A stretch of DNA of 64,000 bases, taken from contig NC_043021.1 in the NCBI RefSeq assembly GCF_006345805.1, positions 20,584,001-20,648,000 on the forward strand, written 5' to 3'. Below, piece by piece: positions 27,535 to 59,293 of the stretch. The notes under the pieces are model-generated. The model was not told the origin of the DNA and did not search any database. It worked only from the letters and a program-made list of their open reading frames with translations. Numbering within the stretch: position 1 is the first letter of the stretch; each line of letters begins with the position of its first letter. The DNA comes from Octopus sinensis (taxonomy: Eukaryota). Made by a program: the position numbers and the translations under genes.

Positions 27535-30500
27535 CCCTACAATGTTCACGGCTTCATTGGTGGCTAATGAGCCCTGCTCTTGTCAAGCATACACGACTGC
27601 AAACATTGCAAACCAAGCTTTCCCCATTCACTATACAAGCCGTGTGCTTTCGCACAGCTCGCTTAAGTTCTTCATGCTGGATACATGCTCTCCCAAATGT
27701 GTCGATCCCCTCCTTAACTTGCTTCCTCCATCTGTGGTGATGACAGGCATTGTTCTCCTAGTCAGTGTCCTGCATATCACAGTCCTTAAATCGCAGCCTT
27801 GGTTTCTGCCGGAGTCTCCTTCCATTCACGAGTTCTACATAGAGAATCTGCTTAGGAATCCTGTTATCCTTCATTCTAATAAGGTGTCCAGTTCAACGTA
27901 ACTGGTGCTTGTGCACCATTGCCTCAATACTCAAGATATCAGCTGTCCTCAGGACCTGGGTGTCTGGAATTTTTGAGGTCCAGCCAACATTGAGAATGTG
28001 TCTGAGACATCTCTGATGAAAGCGTTCAAGGGCCCTTACCTGATGTTTGTACAGTGTCCATGTCTCACATGAGTAGAGGAGCGATGTCAGTACATACGCA
28101 CGGTACACAGCAACTTCTGTTCGCCTTGCGATGCCATGTTGGGACCAGACACGAGACTGAAGAGACCGGAAGGAATTAGTTGCTCTCTGCAACCTGAAAG
28201 ATATTTTCTCATCCAGGGAGCAAGAACGGCTGAGTGTGCTGCCCAGGTAGACAAACTTGTCTACTACCTTCAGAATTGTTCCTTTAACCAGGATAGCTGG
28301 TTCCATATATGGATTTCCTGATGCAGGCTGGAACATTACAACAGTCTTGTCCAGGCTAATGCCGAATCCAAATGCCTTGCAAGAAGCAGAAATGTAATCC
28401 ATGAGTATTTGCATGTCATCCACTGTATGAGTGACTAAGTCACAGTCATCTGCATAAAGGAGGTCACGAATAATAGACTGGGAAACCTTTGAATTGGCGA
28501 AGATTAAAGAGGCGGACAGAAGATCAGTATCTGACATATATTCCCAGAGAGCTAACCTTAGCAAAAGCATGAGTAGAAGCAGCAGCAAAGCACAAAGAAA
28601 AGAGTGTTGAGGCAAGGATGTTACCCTGCTTGACACCATTCTCTACAGGAATGGGTCCCGCCATGGCACCACCAACATTGACCCAAGCCTCCATCCCATC
28701 ATGAAATGATTTAATTATAGATACAAAGTGATCCAGACATCCAAGTGTGCCAAGTATTTTCCATAGAAAGGCCCTATTTACAGTATCAAAGGCCTTTGTT
28801 AAATCAATGAATACCTGGACAAGATCCATATTCTGCTCATAGCACTTCTGCATCTGTCTTGCTGTGAAAATCATATCCATTGTCCCTCTACCAGATCGGA
28901 AGCCACATTGAGATTCAGATAGGACATCATTTACGAGACACCCATTCAGACGGGTAAGAAGAATATTTGCCAGAACCTTGCCAGCAGCTGATAGTAGAGC
29001 AATACCTCTGTAGTTACCACACATTGTTCTGGCTCCTTTTCCTTTATATAGAAGAAGAATAATTGCATCCTTCCAGTCCTTAGGGATTGCACCATCCCTC
29101 CAGACTGCTCTAATAAGTTCATGAAGGGACTGTGTGATGTAATTACCACCAAATTGCAAGACCTCAGCACAAATTCCATCCTTTCCAGGTGCCCTACCAA
29201 GATTCAATTTACTTATTGATGTCATTACTTCATCTATTGAGGGCGAGGAGTCTAAGGAGCCAATGATAGGTCTTTGTTGCATAGTATCAATTACTCTCAT
29301 CCACAACTGACTCATGGTTTAGGAGTTCAGAGAAGTGTTCGATCCAGCGACCTGTGATTTCTGTTGATTTAGTAAACAGAGTGGAAGACTCCTTGGAAAG
29401 CGAAGGAGCTGATATGGAGCTCTTAGGTCCATAAGCTCGCTTCATAAGATGGTAAAGCTTCTTGCTGTCATTTGCATCAGCAGCAGCCTGAACATCACGA
29501 GCAAGATCCTCCCACCAAGTGTTCTGCATCCTCCTGAGAGATCGCTGCAGTAGTGATATTACACTGTTATAGTGGGCAAGTGCTAGACTTCGCTGCACAG
29601 TAGACAGTTCTCTGTGTAGCAACACACTGTGCAGTCTCTGTGTCTGGCAGTAACATACCCCAGTGTTTCGGCTGCACATTGAACAACCTGGTCTCGAAAA
29701 TCTTCCCATGCTGCAGCAGTTTCAATGCTGGACAAGCGAGTCTGAAGCTCTTTCCTAAACACAACATATACCTTGTGGACATTTAGACGGCGAGGAATGC
29801 TGACTGGTCCACTTCTCTCTTTTGCCCTAATCACCATTCGGAACTTTGCTCGCACCAGACTGTGATCTGTCCAGCATTCTGATCCATGCAAGGACTTGAC
29901 ATTACAAATGTCACGCTTGCAGATGATGACATAATCCAGCAAGTGCCAAACTTTGGACCTTGGATGCATCCATGTTGTTGTGTGATCACCTTTGTGCACA
30001 AAATGAGCGCTTGCAATGTAAAGTTCATGTTCTTCGCAAAGCTCCAGTAGCATGAGACCATTGCTATTCATTTTCCCTACTCCAAAATGTCCTAGAGAGT
30101 TCCATGTATGCCAGTCTGTTCCAACCCTGGCATTAAAATCCCCCAGTAGAATGACTTTATCAGAATTGGGGATTTTTCTAAGTATGGCTCTCAGCTGGGT
30201 ATAAAAGATTGTTTTATCTTCATCACAGCTAGTCAAAGTAGGTGCATAGGCACTTATTAGAGTAGCAAACTGCTTACCTTTCAAGTGCAACCGTAGCGTC
30301 ATTATACATTCATTTATAGGAACAGGGAGCTCTTCCAACTTCTTAAGGATATCAGATCGGACTGCAAAACCAACACCAGCCTCTCTGTGCTCCTCCTCCT
30401 GCCTTCCTTTCCAAAAAAAGGTGTATCCACCTCCTACTTCCTCAAGCTGACCATCACCTTCTATACGAGTCTCTGAGAGTGCAGCTATATCAATTTTATA

Positions 30501-30900
30501 ATGGTTCAGCTCACGAGCAACAAGTGCAGTGCGTCTTTCAGGCCTGCAATCACTCTTGTTGTCTAACAGTGCGCACATTCCAACATGAAATGTTTAAGTT
30601 CCGTCCAGATTTTATACATAAAAGACTCTTTGTTTTTCGAGCGCAGGGTGGACATTCGTCAGTCGCGCTAAACTGACCAGATATGGAAAGACAGGCAATT
30701 TTTGGTTCACCTTTTCTAGAACCTCCCCGGTCTCCGTGATCTCTAGCACAAACCAAAGATCCCCAAAATGTCCAATGCCATTCCTTGCATATCTGGTTTT
30801 GTATCAGAGTGACCTTCTCCTAGAGACATGCTTTAACAAACACTGAGGGGTGCCTCACTGCCAGTGGTCTTTCGGCATGCCGGACACCATCCCGGAATTT
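27535..30900 (-). mobile_element. Near full-length RTE-clade LINE (APE-RT-C2H2), frameshifted
   Basis: WNVRT, ERRTALVAREL..YKIDIAALSETR, YAPT, LGDFNARVG and WMHPRSK (APE). NYRGIALLS, ESQCGFRSGRGT.DMIF, FIDLTKAFDTV, GVKQG, LLYADD, F.YLGS, LLYSCETW and FHQRCLR (RT). Terminal CNVCSRVC...GLISH zinc finger. Confidence 0.95.
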
Positions 30901-49197: not shown

Positions 49198-49258
49198 GAA
49201 ACTCTCGAAGACATAGACAAAGATAAAGATGGAAAAGTCAGTCTTGAAGAATACATAA
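49198..49258 (+). CDS. CALU: Calumenin-like, coding exon 5 (EF4)
   Basis: CAG/GTAAGT boundaries. Encodes ETLEDIDKDKDGKVSLEEYI. Phase 0 to 1. Confidence 0.95.
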
Positions 49259-52519: not shown

Positions 52520-54336
52520 GTACTATGGTCAGCAGTAACTAAAGGCAATACTATGGTCAGTAGTAACTAAAGCATAGTGTTGCATTGAATAGTAAGAGCA
52601 CTCTGCAGTGTTGCTAACCATGTCTACAAATGGCATCATTAGAGAGAGAGAGAACGAGGCTACGTTAGCAAGCTGGCAGAATCGTTAGTGTGCCAAACAA
52701 AATACTTAGCGCCAGTCCTTCCAGCTTTGTTCTGAGTTCAAATCCTGCCGAGGTCAACTTTGCCTTTCATTCTTTCGGGGCTGATAAAATAAGTACTGTT
52801 TGAGCACCGGGGTCTCTGTAATTTATTAACCCCTCCCTCGAAAATTGCTGGCCCTGTGCCAGAATTAGAAAGAACTCTGGAGTGGGGCCTGGGCACTTAA
52901 CAGGCAGAATTGTTAGAACATCAGACAAAATACCTTGTGCTGTTTGTCTTGGTCCTTTACATTCTGAGGTTGATTTTTCCCTTCCATCTTTTTAGGGTTA
53001 ATGTAATACTATATTATATTATACTGACTGACCCCCTGTTCCCTTAAATTTGCTGGTGTTGTGCCTAAATTAGAAAAAATTATTACAGAGACACTAAGGC
53101 AGAAAGCTGGCAGAATCGTTAGCACATTGGGCAAAATGCTTAGTGGCATTTCATTGGTTTTTACGTTCTGAGTTCAAATTCTGTTGAGGTTGACTCTGGC
53201 TTTCATTCTTTTGGGGTTCGGTAAAATGAGTACCAGTTGAGTACTGAGGTCAATGTAGTTGATTTGACTCTTCTGCTGGTCTGGTGCCAAAATTTGAAGC
53301 CAATATTACACAGAGACCCTAAACTTATTGTTGGCAGTTGTTCCTCTTCATGATTGATGTTGGCTGTGATCTAAAATTATGACATGAAGTTCAGCCGACA
53401 GAAGCCTGTGAGAGAACCTTTTATGTGGCCTCTATGCCTGCTAGAAATAGCAGCTGAATGGCTAATGTGTACAGTTTCCTTCTTACCATGTTAATTAGTT
53501 AAGGCAGCTATGTTAGTGTCTTGCATATGCAAGTAGGTTTCTATCTAAAGAAGGTCAACCTTTATCTAACTGTTGCAGATCCTTACTGCAAGTTTGGACC
53601 CTGATTTTGAATGACCTTAAATGGATTGGCTAAATTGTTAAGTACGTCAGAAAAAGAAGCTTTGCAGTATTTGTTCCAGCTCTTTATATTCTGAGTTCAA
53701 ATCCTGTCTAAGTCAACTTTGCCTTTCATCCTTTCGGCTAAAATATATATAGCAGTCTGGAACTGGAGTCAAAGTTACTGGTTTTCTGCTTAAGTTAGAA
53801 ACAAAATATTTGGCACATAAGTTCAAATAATAGGAATGGTTTCATTGGTCTTTACTGAGTTGTTATGATTTTTTATTATTATTATTGTGTTATTACTTTG
53901 CTTGGGAGACTGGCAAGAGTTGGCATTTGGCCACATAAGATCTGCCTCAGTAAACTCTGTCTGACTCATACAAGTGTGGCAAAGTGGATGTTGAGACAGT
54001 GATGATGTGTTCTCGTCTACTTGATGTCTGTGACGTAATTTAACAACTAACACCTGACCCTTGTAGGCATTTGGATCAAGTCTCTTTCCTGAGGAGCACT
54101 TGGTATCTTGATGCAGCAATCTACAAATTGTGGGTTCTTCCTCTTGCTTTCAAAGGCTCCTTAAAAGTCCCTGCTGATTGAGGCCTCTCCTACTCTAACC
54201 TATGCCATATAAAAAGATAAATACATCACCTTCGTTTAATTATGTTCCTCCCTTCTACTAATGTAACAGTGACAAAGTTGTTTGGTGAAATTGTAATAAT
54301 TCTACTGTTAATTGGAATGTTAACTTACGTTCATAG

Positions 54337-54548
54337 CTGATATATACGGAAATGAAGATGAAGATGATGAGGATGAAGATGACCCAGATTGGGTCAACGA
54401 GGAAAAGGAGCAGTTCCACAATTTCCGTGATAAAAACAAAGACGGCTTCTTGGACAAAGCCGAGGTGACAGAATGGTTGATTCCCGAGGAGTTTAATCAC
54501 CTTGATACTGAAGTATCTCACCTTGTGAGGACGTCTGATGTGGATCAG
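54337..54548 (+). CDS. CALU: Calumenin-like, alternative coding exon 6a (acidic linker, EF5, start of EF6)
   Basis: TAG/GTGTGT boundaries, 212 nt, phase 1 to 0, no stops. Encodes (T)DIYGNEDEDDEDEDDPDWVNEEKEQFHNFRDKNKDGFLDKAEVTEWLIPEEFNHLDTEVSHLVRTSDVDQ. Missed by the ORF track. Confidence 0.85.
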
Positions 54549-55111
54549 GTGTGTAATAGAGCATTGCCGGTGCAATGCATGAGAAACTGCTCAACAAACT
54601 TATAGAATTTTAACACTTCGAGCCTATTTCATGTAGAAAGTAAAGCAGTGTAGCAGAAAGCTGATGACGGTTCATCTCTTGTGATTTCTTCCAGTTCCCC
54701 CAAAAAAGACAGATCTGGAATCAATCATTTCATACCTTTCCTCTTGTGGCACTTATCTACCAGACATTTTACTGCTGACTTTTTTTTGATAAAATAGACA
54801 GAACCTCAAGAATATAACACGTGGCCATTGAAAGGATTGTGCAAAGAGAACTAATTATTTTTTTATTTATGTCAACATTAGCTTCTCGTACAAGGTTGCT
54901 AAATTTACTATTGTCTTCTCAATCTATTTGTAAAATTAACTGAATTTTGTATAAAAATTTGAAAATTTTCTTCTCTGAAATATATATATATATTTATATA
55001 TACATTTCTTTTAAAAAAAATTGAAGTATTGTGTATTCAATGAGTTTGTTGAGCAGATATTTTGACTTGATTTTTTGACGTATGTTTTGATGACGGCTTT
55101 GCCATTTGTAG

Positions 55112-55314
55112 GTGACATGTGGCCCGGGGATAAGGAGGGAGAGCCAGAACCCGATTGGGTTAAAGGTGAGCGCGAGCAGTTCTCCAACTATAGAGACAAA
55201 AATGGTGATCATATGATGGACAAAGCGGAAGTGAGGGAATGGCTTCTTCCCTCTGATTACGATCATTCAATTGCCGAAGCAAGCCATTTAATTTATGAGT
55301 CAGATAAGAACAAG
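55112..55314 (+). CDS. CALU: Calumenin-like, alternative coding exon 6b (canonical-type EF5, start of EF6)
   Basis: TAG/GTTTGT boundaries, 203 nt, phase 1 to 0. Encodes (S)[67 protein letters not shown]. Confidence 0.92.
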
Positions 55315-57306
55315 GTTTGTAACAGTGAACACTACTGCTTGTCCTTGCCCTTGTTTTAAGGTTTTGTGGTTGCACTTAACTGAAAGCAGGCTGTTTATTG
55401 TTGTTTTAATGTGTTTTCTAATTCTGTTTTCTCTCTCTTCACTCTAACTCTGTAACAATCTTTCTCACTCTCCTCTCCGTCTTTGAGCCACTCTGCTATG
55501 TTATTTCATGGAATTCATAAAAATTAATCGCTCTCTATTCCCATAACAAAGGCAGCAAGCTGACAAAATATTTAGCATGTCAGGTAAAACACTTCAAGGC
55601 ATTTCTTGTGGCTCTGTGCTCTGAGTTCAAATGCTACCAAGGTCAACTTCACCTTTCATCTCGCAGGGGTCGGTAACCAGCCTTATGAATCCCGAGTTCA
55701 AAAACTAAAAAAAAAAAAAAAAATTTGGCCCTTTAGCATTCAGATTACTCTGTCAAATGTAATGCTTATTGATTCACATGGTTTTGAATTAAACATGTAA
55801 TATCTCATAGCTTTGAGATTTCAATGATGCAATTTGTTTATTTTAGAATGTAGGGCTGGTGTGAGAGATCAGATCTGTCCAGTTTGAACATAAAACCGGT
55901 TGAATATTTTTTTGGCCCGATATGGCTGGTTTAAATGCTGAAGAGTTAAACTGCTTTTGGCAGTATAAGGGCCAATAGTATTTAGGGGGGTTTTTTTCCT
56001 CTGTAAGAAAAATGAATTACCTTTGAAAAATCTCTAATATTTAAAACCTTTTTTTCATATTCTATTTCATGAAATTCCATTAACAGAAAAACTCCTTTAG
56101 ATTTATTTTCTTCTGATATTGTCTCTCCTTGCATTTTCTTTATGGTGTTGGTCTCCTTGGTGAGCTTTGTTTGTTACCCTATATATTGTGTGTGTGTGTG
56201 TGTGTGTATGATAATTGAGCACATGGCCTGATGGTTTAGGGTGTCACATTCATAACCACAAGGTTGTGGTTTCAATTCTTCAACTGGGTAATGTGTTGTG
56301 TTCTTGAGCAAAACAGTTAATTTCATGTTACTCTGCAATCACTTCAACATTTGATGTGTGGGAAACCACGGCCCCTGTACAGGTAATGTTCATTTGGAAA
56401 AAAAGGGAGTGAGGGTTAAAATTGCATATATTATGAAACTTCTCATGTTGAACTTGTGCATGCTAATGGATTATATATTTACTCCTCACTAGACACACAC
56501 ACATTGGCGTTTACTGATGTGACACCTGAATTTTTCTACACCAGAAGAATTTCAATCTTATTTAAGGCTACAATTCAAGAGGGTATTTAGCTTTAAGGAC
56601 TGGACTTGCTCCATCTTTCTACTCTTCTGGGACCTTAACTCTTTTGGTTCCAAACTGTCAAAGACTGCCCTTCATTTAATGTTACAGACTCTAGGTTTTA
56701 AAGGGATCTAAATTTCCTTTTAAATTTTATGTTATATTATGTTCCAAAGATAATTATTTTTAATATTATTTTAAAAATTGACAGACAAACTGTATATTAA
56801 CTGAAATATGATAAAAGGGTTGGGCCTCACTGGCTGAGGTGTTGGGGTTTGCTGTGCTTGAAAAGACACGTCAAACTAGATAGAATTATGATCATCCATA
56901 CATACAAGCATGCCCTTTGCAGATGCCATGTGAAATGCACTACATGTTGGTGCTGCGTAAACACACTTGTGCTGGTGGCAGGTAAAAAGCACCCAACACA
57001 TTCTGTGAATTGGTTAGCATTAGGAAGGACATCCAACTGCAGAAACCATGCCAAAACAGCTGGAGTCTGGACAGCTGCCCAACTCGTGTCAAACTCTCCA
57101 ACCCATGCCAGCATGGGAAATGGATATTAAATGATGATGATGATGATCTATATGGCTGTTCAGTTTCCAAAGTGTTAAACAGATCATGCCTCTTTTATTC
57201 AGGGGAGTAGAAACTTAAAGAAATTCATTGTTATGTAATGTATAGTTACCATTTTCAGCTCAGCTTGTCCAAAGATTAAATTTCTGTTTTTTCTTTCTCT
57301 TTACAG

Positions 57307-57411
57307 GACGGTAAATTATCCAAAAATGAGATCCTGGACAAATACGATCTCTTTGTTGGCAGCCAAGCTACGGATTTTGGTGAAGCTTTGAAGTCTCATG
57401 ATGAGTTTTAA
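57307..57411 (+). CDS. CALU: Calumenin-like, last coding exon (end of EF6, HDEF ER-retrieval signal)
   Basis: Acceptor TTACAG. Encodes [34 protein letters not shown]; HDEF is the calumenin C-terminus. The spliced protein is 318 aa with 6b or 321 aa with 6a, counted from ATG 40520. Confidence 0.95.
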
Positions 57412-58542
57412 GCAGAATCTCTCAATTAGAATCATGTGTGAGAAGAAAGAGGAGGAGGAGGAGAAGAGAAAAATCAAATCAAAAAAAGAGAGAACCTCTA
57501 AGTCATCAATATTTGTATTTTTTTTTTTTTTTGACTTTCCTCTCTGATAACATGAAGATGCTGACATATACTGGACTTAAGCTATGGTCACAAGACTTCT
57601 ATTGATGGCAATTGAATGGGTTTTTTTTGTTGTTTTTAAGGAACTGGTGCTGTACCTTATCTCATCTGGTTTTCACATTTACAATTGTAATTGCACATCA
57701 AATTATTATTACTGAGAACAACAGAGTTGGTAGAGTAGCAAATAATAATAATAATAATAATCATTAATAATTATTATTATTTTGAATATTGTATAGTGGT
57801 GTATTGGCAGAATCATTGGTATGTCAGACAGAATGCTTAGTGGTGTTTCTTCCGGTCTTAATGTCCCGAGTTCAAATTCCACCAAGGTTGACTTTGCCTT
57901 TCTTCCTTCTGGGGGTCGATAAAATTAAAATACCGGTCAAGCACTGAAGTTGATGTAATTGACGGCCCCTTTCCCCCAAAAAAATTTCAGGCCTTGTGCC
58001 TATTGTAGAAAACATTATTTTGAACATTGTGCCAATATTAGAATACATTATTATTATTATTTTAATTATATTGGTGTGAACGGCAGAATTGATTGAATGT
58101 AGAAAACAAAGTGCTTTGTGGCGTTCAGTTACGTTCCTTTACATTCTGAGTTCAAACTCAGCCGAGGTCAACTTTACTTCTCATCCTCAAGGTATTAACA
58201 AAATTAATACCAGCCTAGTAACTGGGGTCAATATAACCAACTGTTGTACTTGCCCCCTAAAATACATGGCTTTGTGTCTAAGTTACCAAGTTATTTCCTT
58301 CTGCCAACTCCTGTCCTACAGTATAAGTCTGTGATCATGTGAACTAGCTAAGCTCTGATCCTTAGGGTTTTTTTTTTTTACGTATTTCAATTTTCTTGCT
58401 TTTACTTTATGGAGTATCCATCAGTCATGCTTCATTGTAAATTAGCTGGGAAAACTGATAATTTTAGATTTAGTTTTGAAGCTATCTTGCATTTTTATTC
58501 TCTCAGCTTAATCTAGTTTATATATATATATATATATATTAA

Positions 58543-59293
58543 ATATATATAGGTGTGTGTGTATACAGGTGCAGACGGTATATGAGGACATATTTATGGT
58601 TTTAGAAAAAAAAAGCTTATATAATAACAGAAAAAACTGTATTTTTTTTTAAATAACATAAACAAAGCTAAATTATCAATTTAATAATTTCATTCAATAA
58701 ACCCACCATAAGCTTCAATAACTATCTCTACATGGGGTCGAAATTATTTACAAGCTTTGATTTACATGTCCTCAAATACCAACTGCACCCTATATATACA
58801 CACGTGTGTATATGTATGTATATGCATATATATGTGTATACATGTGTATATATATATATATACACACATGTGTATATGTACATATATGTGTATGCATGTA
58901 TATATATATATATATATTCAATATATATAGGTGTGTGTGTATACAGGTGCAGACGGTATATGAGGACATATTTATGGTTTTAGAAAAAAAAAGCTTATAT
59001 AATAACAGAAAAAACTGTATTTTTTTTTAAATAACATAAACAAAGCTAAATTATCAATTTAATAATTTCATTCAATAAACCCACCATAAGCTTCAATAAC
59101 TATCTCTACATGGGGTCGAAATTATTTACAAGCTTTGATTTACATGTCCTCAAATACCAACTGCACCCTATATATACACACGTGTGTATATGTATGTATA
59201 TGCATATATATGTGTATACATGTGTATATATATATACACACATGTGTATATGTACATATATGTGTATGCATGTATATATATATATATATATAT
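58543..59293 (+). repeat. 378-nt tandem duplication downstream of the stop codon
   Basis: Near-identical blocks start at about 58543 and 58921. Each contains AATAAA (58696 and 59074). Confidence 0.9.

Follow-up and report, generated by a model that had tools for sequence, protein, structure and literature searches.

Judged by its sequence, the gene at this locus is octopus calumenin, a member of the CREC family, which lies within a 64-kb window (the whole stretch of 64,000 nucleotides of Octopus sinensis DNA that was analysed). EF-hands were found in its product by Pfam matches, the C-terminal HDEF expected of a CREC protein is encoded in exon 7, and the signal peptide was called by eye only. 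Two exons, 6a and 6b, lie in tandem between exon 5 and exon 7 (Table 1), and the splice forms 5-6a-7 and 5-6b-7 yield the ends of the proteins P0004 and P0127. Their lengths of 212 and 203 nt are both 2 modulo 3, a global alignment finds 126 identical nucleotides between them, and each gives a full protein. The peptide encoded by 6a is 100% identical to that in Octopus vulgaris calumenin-B-like X1. The reading of 6a and 6b as homologous exons used alternatively, from which an earlier note on this DNA had set out, is borne out, since both are spliced to exon 7, can be aligned with each other and keep their frames intact. Calcium binding may differ between the two forms, because 6a has an acidic linker and retains Gly, rather than the His of 6b, at loop position 6. 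Elsewhere in the window, an exact 300-nt direct repeat with a spacing of 378 nt lies downstream of the gene (58521-59198), as a recent duplication or an assembly artefact, and a 336-aa open frame on the minus strand (29583-30593) resembles, by eye, the endonuclease end of a LINE retrotransposon.

Table 1. Features of the calumenin exon 6 region, with positions counted from the first nucleotide of the window
Feature	Position	Strand	Remarks
Exon 5 of calumenin	49198..49258	+	EF-hand loop DKDKDGKVSLEE; ends in phase 1; spliced forms match proteins P0004 and P0127
Exon 6a, 212 nt	54337..54548	+	acidic linker (11 D/E of 15 residues), EF-hand DKNKDGFLDKAE, start of last EF loop
6a donor GTGTGT (CAG/GTGTGT)	54549..54554	+	from the sequence; intron begins at 54549; second GT at +5
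Perfect 7-bp hairpin, 4-nt loop	54561..54578	+	pairing probability at least 0.95 in 4/5 folding contexts
TGCATG, RBFOX consensus, candidate	54576..54581	+	UGC paired in hairpin, AUG outside; intron +28
Stem A, 5' arm, 17 bp, one G-U	54587..54603	+	intron +39 to +55; from folding and shuffles
Stem A, 3' arm	55040..55056	+	ends 55 nt ahead of 6b acceptor; intron -72 to -56
Branch-point-like yTnAy sites of 6b, candidate	55063..55091	+	A at 55065, 55070, 55078, 55090; pattern scan
Stem B, possible alternative partner of 54561-54581	55081..55102	+	over 6b branch and pyrimidine region; folding of intron alone
Exon 6b, 203 nt	55112..55314	+	DMWP-type, form common to other animals; joint 6b-7 in X3, X12
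Exon 7	57307..57411	+	end of coding region, HDEF

Inclusion of both exons shifts the frame and places a stop codon 98 nt ahead of the last exon junction, and skipping of both leads to a stop 8 nt into exon 7. The second GT at +5 of the 6a donor is, by a frame test, a candidate source of an in-frame 6a+6b form, which would evade nonsense-mediated decay. Gene models of Ridgeia, Solemya and Elysia have both exons joined with two extra residues, like the form that the +5 GT would give.

Both isoforms exist. Contigs from four of the 24 listed sequencing runs (X3, X12, X6 and X20) were compared, over a stretch that begins beyond exon 5; the runs bear no tissue labels, and X3 and X12 were guessed to be RNA. 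The joint 6a-7 is present in contigs of X3, X12 and X6 at depths of 144, 127 and 7.4, respectively, and the joint 6b-7 in X3 and X12 at depths of 502 and 166. A contig of exon 6a was found in all three of the RNA-type runs compared, and the 6a/6b contig depths by run are 224/650, 156/166 and 89/52, a measure that cannot rank the parts of a gene. No 6a-6b joint is among the joints listed (15 of 144), contigs being apt to drop rare forms. High word shares had raised the suspicion that the 6a-6b intron is specifically retained; this is not supported, as X3 has a depth of about 18-27 in all three introns. In the run X20, which is RNA from an octopod that its exon differences mark as more distant, both exons are present as contigs with 10-11 letter differences per exon contig, and the intron is uncovered. 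Of the 82 nt in one X20 contig (54260-54341), 77 are the 3' end of intron 5 and just 6 differ, which may reflect conservation of the region round the 6a acceptor or its partial retention. The run X6, with its flat, genome-like cover, holds the spliced 6a-7 joint (54548-57307, depth 7.4), as carry-over of RNA or a processed copy.

The pair of exons appears from protein comparison to be mollusc-wide and old. Among the 126 proteins compared (the best 120 of 1017 matches plus cluster members), many of the molluscs are represented by two forms, identical but for the exon 6 segment, which is of either the acidic a type or the DMWP b type. Both forms occur within one species in Physella, Pecten, Saccostrea and Sinanodonta, as well as in the chiton Liolophura, and four gene models, including that of the annelid Ridgeia, carry both exons in the order a, b; the X1 and X2 forms of Lineus and Saccoglossus show no difference in this segment. 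A first tree of 54 hand-picked segments separated a from b with support of 81/76 and a long-branch warning. In a core-only tree of 54 columns, from which the acidic lead was left out, all 13 named mollusc a exons fell on one branch (96/91, rough bootstraps), and the first exons of the loci L004, L007 and L027 described below were placed outside it, so that their orthology is unsure. Vertebrate proteins group with the b type in the trees. Vertebrate CALU likewise has tandem homologous, mutually exclusive EF-hand exons, which date from the jawed vertebrates (PMC4494069); they encode the first EF-hand, whereas the octopus pair encodes the fifth and part of the sixth, and the octopus pair is therefore an independent duplication.

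The 563-nt intron between 6a and 6b is predicted to be folded by a long-range helix, stem A. In the ungapped-helix test it reaches -24.3 kcal/mol (0/60 shuffles as good), and in the ends-only duplex test its computed z is -6.1 (0/200 shuffles). Its pairing probability is 1.0 at 15, 25 and 37 C in all three of the folding contexts that hold both arms. No partner in the flanking introns and exons comes close to competing for its arms (-25 kcal/mol against -16.4 or weaker), and a docking-selector system of the kind in Dscam exon 6 or ATE1 is not supported, since the arms have no second partner of similar strength there. A search of Rfam over 54200-55500 was empty at E values up to 1. X3 lists no A-to-I marks in the stem and X12 reaches the 5' arm only; as contigs drop rare variants, this counts as no evidence. 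Stem A is predicted to loop out about 436 of the 563 intron nucleotides and to leave a path of 47-72 nt outside the stem between the 6a donor and the putative branch points of 6b (-47 to -22). The small hairpin beside the donor removes about 16 nt more, which brings the path to 31-56 nt, depending on the candidate branch point taken; the branch points are guesses and all of the structure is computed.

Intron pairing was compared in other animals through a metagenome scan, in which 80 of 88 loci were kept and six were found to hold both exons (L004, L007, L015, L019, L027 and L028). L027 and L028 were taken as alleles, giving five species, and L028 was omitted from the best-30-nt window test; protein likeness points to bivalves for L019 and L027. 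In this test octopus, L019 and L027 each had 0/40 shuffles as good, L004, L007 and L015 were not significant, and none of 12 control introns passed (best 6/40). It was the third test tried and the only one that L019 passed (8/60 in the ungapped-helix test, 63/200 in the ends-only duplex test); in the ends-only test two of 21 control introns, both of octopus, reached 1/100 and 4/100. The 5' arm starts at +39 in octopus, +36 in L019 and +32 in L027, and the 3' arm ends at -56 in octopus and -57 in L027. The L027 helix pairs about +32 to +86 with -107 to -57 (z -4.5) and leaves a donor-branch path of 36-66 nt. L019 needs two stems in series, one between +36 to +51 and the mid-intron and another, of 12 bp, closing at -80, and is left with a longer path. 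L027 and L028 are identical over the first 93 intron nucleotides and differ mostly in the loop; no compensatory changes were found between them, and the arms of different species cannot be aligned. Taken as computed structures, these stems suggest that a long-range helix recurs at a like place, with differing letters, in octopus and two bivalve-like species. Among the loci scanned, the b exon of L015 (2966-3165) has two in-frame stops and its a exon is open, through decay of the exon or assembly errors, and several loci in L041-L069 have a single b-type exon after exon 5, the a exon being missing or undetected.

The small hairpin, which the earlier note had described as GCATTGC-CGGT-GCAATGC at 54561-54578, after 12 intron nucleotides past the 6a donor, is confirmed in both letters and coordinates, and so are the overlap of its 3' arm with TGCATG and the 5 nt (54582-54586) between this hexamer and the long stem. 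A contig of X3 that runs from 54520 to 55141 carries 3 substitutions and 2 indels, all of them outside the hairpin, the hexamer and the stem arms, and a contig of X12 spans 54520-54895 with no difference in the hairpin and hexamer region. An assembly error at this site is excluded, as both contigs cross it without a listed difference there. Judged after the fact, the hairpin exceeds chance: dinucleotide shuffling of the first 38 intron nucleotides yields a perfect hairpin of at least 7 bp in 7 of 5000 trials, 9 of 440 windows of this length across the gene span contain one, and 12 such hairpins with at least 4 GC pairs and non-simple arms occur in the 64-kb window. If exon sequence is included in the folding, both stem A and the hairpin form at a probability of about 1.0. 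The a-b introns of L019 and L027 lack the hairpin. At L007 a perfect 7-bp hairpin without TGCATG lies about 18 nt past the first-exon donor, within the first 45 intron nucleotides (1497-1516), and octopus exon 6a itself holds a second one, TGACCCA-GAT-TGGGTCA (54380-54396).

The suggestion that melting of the hairpin could be temperature-sensitive did not hold up. Its predicted stability is -13.1 kcal/mol at 10 C and -9.4 kcal/mol at 30 C and falls to zero only at 80-85 C, far above sea temperatures; with no melting predicted in the physiological range, an RNA thermometer is ruled out. The cost of opening the hexamer drops by only about 0.75-1.3 kcal/mol between 15 and 25 C, as for any helix, and by these calculations only a graded change in access would remain.

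The hexamer itself is a common word, as the same note had cautioned: the 64-kb window has 65 matches on both strands, against 49.2 +/- 7.3 in shuffled sequence, and 35 of the copies are on the plus strand. It occurs in 1.5, 2.4, 5.1 and 13.4% of gene windows of 33, 50, 100 and 250 nt, respectively, and is regenerated by 1061 of 5000 shuffles of the 38 nt that hold it; three other copies (46475, 49009 and 49423) lie at most 250 nt from constitutive splice sites. The copy at 54576-54581 is the only one of the 35 that overlaps a perfect hairpin. Its computed opening cost is 6-8 kcal/mol with exon context (7.9 at 25 C) and 4.8-9.1 kcal/mol over contexts and temperatures, and ranks 29th of 35, which places it among the least accessible hexamers in the window rather than among the single-stranded. 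TGCATG was found in none of the a-b introns of the six other two-exon loci (five species, all very distant); GCATG is present in those of L004 (+100), L007 (+248) and L027/L028 (within the 3' stem arm). Over these loci the hexamer is not a shared feature, but the animals are too distant for its absence to rule out that RBFOX acts on the octopus exon. L019 has four TGCATG past its b exon (1267-1470), of which three fall in a 37-nt tandem repeat.

The best explanation of these features, in our judgement, is that the folded intron and the hairpin bar the joining of 6a to 6b sterically. Stem A would loop out most of the intron between two old, tandem-duplicated, exclusive exons, and together with the hairpin would draw the 6a donor to within 31-56 nt of the likely 6b branch points. 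Such a path would be at or below the 50-60 nt required for U1 and U2 to sit on one intron, so that 6a could not be joined to 6b, and nonsense-mediated decay would remove any frameshifted double-inclusion RNA that leaked through. The hairpin would then be an accessory that shortens the spacer, and UGCAUG an incidental element or a minor tuner. Steric exclusion is favoured because the predicted path is near the published thresholds, given as about 50 nt (PMC7969005) and 60 nt (PMC13762713). Against it, three of the six two-exon species (L004, L007 and L015) have no significant stem, and frameshift with decay alone could explain exclusivity; for the model in full, including the clearing of leaks by decay and the incidental or minor hexamer, we see the arguments as evenly balanced. 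The narrower statement, that folding of the intron rather than RBFOX keeps 6a and 6b from joint use, is probably correct.

The absence of a significant stem in those three species, and the stop 98 nt ahead of the last junction on double inclusion, are also what one would expect if the hairpin and hexamer were neutral, decay and unidentified proteins gave exclusivity, and stem A at most sped up or biased splicing; it is likewise unremarkable (about 27%) that the five changes in the X3 intron spare the elements. We consider this distinctly unlikely, in view of the stems at a like position in three species against 0/12 controls, the rarity of the hairpin in shuffles, and the in-frame 6a+6b form through the +5 GT, which would evade decay. 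The proposal with which the earlier note began, that in neurons or muscle RBFOX opens the hairpin at the UGCAUG at +28 and thereby switches on the 6a donor, with the hairpin as a threshold, is in our opinion unlikely too, although it has real points in its favour. RBFOX usually activates from sites downstream of an exon (PMC11874969), and the position of the octopus hexamer matches this; RBFOX-like transcripts are described in O. vulgaris (PMC5736919); and RBFOX is reported to open stems around GCAUG, with reduced affinity (PMC4872098). Furthermore, a hexamer would fall by chance within 33 nt in about 1.5% of cases, only one hexamer in 35 overlaps a perfect hairpin, and the 6a/6b contig depths vary among runs, though such depth cannot rank the parts of a gene. 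These points are set against a single, buried copy of a word that a fifth or so of local shuffles regenerate, that is missing from the same intron of the other loci (of very distant animals) and that stands near constitutive splice sites three times in this gene region, and against the geometry of the worm systems (PMC3585155). The two readings are not fully exclusive, as RBFOX could tune the 6a/6b ratio on top of steric exclusion.

A structural switch was also considered, in which 54561-54581 would form either the local hairpin, leaving 6b open, or stem B, which would extend stem A and hide 6b so that 6a is used, in the manner of ATE1. Stem B has a probability of 0.99 when the intron is folded alone, with a duplex energy of -18.7 kcal/mol (21/1000 shuffles as good), and the long helix of L027 also reaches branch-like sites, at -52 and -48. 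When exon sequence is added, however, stem B vanishes (0.0, against 1.0 for the hairpin); its helix is interrupted by several loops, the same 21 nt have a partner at least as good in one stretch of intron 5 (-22.7) and an equal one in intron 6b (-18.2), and the local hairpin would presumably form first in transcription. Such a switch seems to us quite improbable. Still harder to credit is a combination of these ideas, by which RBFOX would open the hairpin and the freed 54561-54575 would pair with 55087-55102, held near by stem A, turning 6a on and hiding 6b in neurons or muscle; an EF-hand exon with an acidic, calcium-buffering linker would thereby be swapped in, the pair being mollusc-wide and the long stem re-formed from new letters at one and the same site in the cephalopods and the bivalves.

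Steric exclusion combined with RNA secondary structure is reportedly the mechanism described by Yue et al. in 2013 for exons 17.1 and 17.2 of insect Dscam1, a cluster of two exons whose intronic pairing reportedly draws the donor of the first close to the branch point of the second, as proposed here. Calumenin differs from it in being another gene, in another phylum, with a predicted stem and an additional local hairpin that carries the RBFOX word. In exons 4a and 4b of OGDH, which also encodes a calcium-related protein, and in other pairs with distant branch points, a donor-branch distance below about 50 nt excludes joint use; the OGDH branch point is close in linear sequence, whereas the calumenin intron of 563 nt would be shortened by folding (PMC7969005). 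In human ATE1, intronic pairings round the tandem exons 7a and 7b are described as blocking double inclusion and hiding a 3' splice site (PMC7797038); stem A lacks a strong competing partner, and only the weak stem B resembles that system. The parallel with C. elegans drawn in the earlier note stands in part. As here, a UGCAUG lies beside the exclusive pairs egl-15 5A/5B and unc-32 7a/7b, which are under ASD-1/FOX-1, but the geometry is another one: the egl-15 word is upstream and repressing, and that of unc-32 comes after the second exon and is conserved among Caenorhabditis, both having been tested (PMC3585155), whereas the octopus word is a putative site after the first exon and is half paired.

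No paper on paired calumenin exons in molluscs, or on the structure of the intron between them, came up in the literature search, supplements and most subscription journals lying outside its reach, and CALU is absent from the main text of PMC9741552. Both forms are already present in database gene models, and the isoform annotation of PMC9699675 may well contain them. The RBFOX reading is unproven and less well supported than that of an old mollusc exon pair with a recurring looping stem, and the RBFOX word alone is of little weight unless conservation or tissue data back it. If the favoured reading holds, calumenin acquired mutually exclusive EF-hand exons on two occasions, in vertebrates for the first hand and in molluscs for the fifth. 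The latter pair would have persisted from the split of chitons and octopuses onward, with a looping stem that keeps its place while its letters turn over, and the 563-nt octopus intron would offer a compact lophotrochozoan test case for exclusivity enforced by RNA structure.
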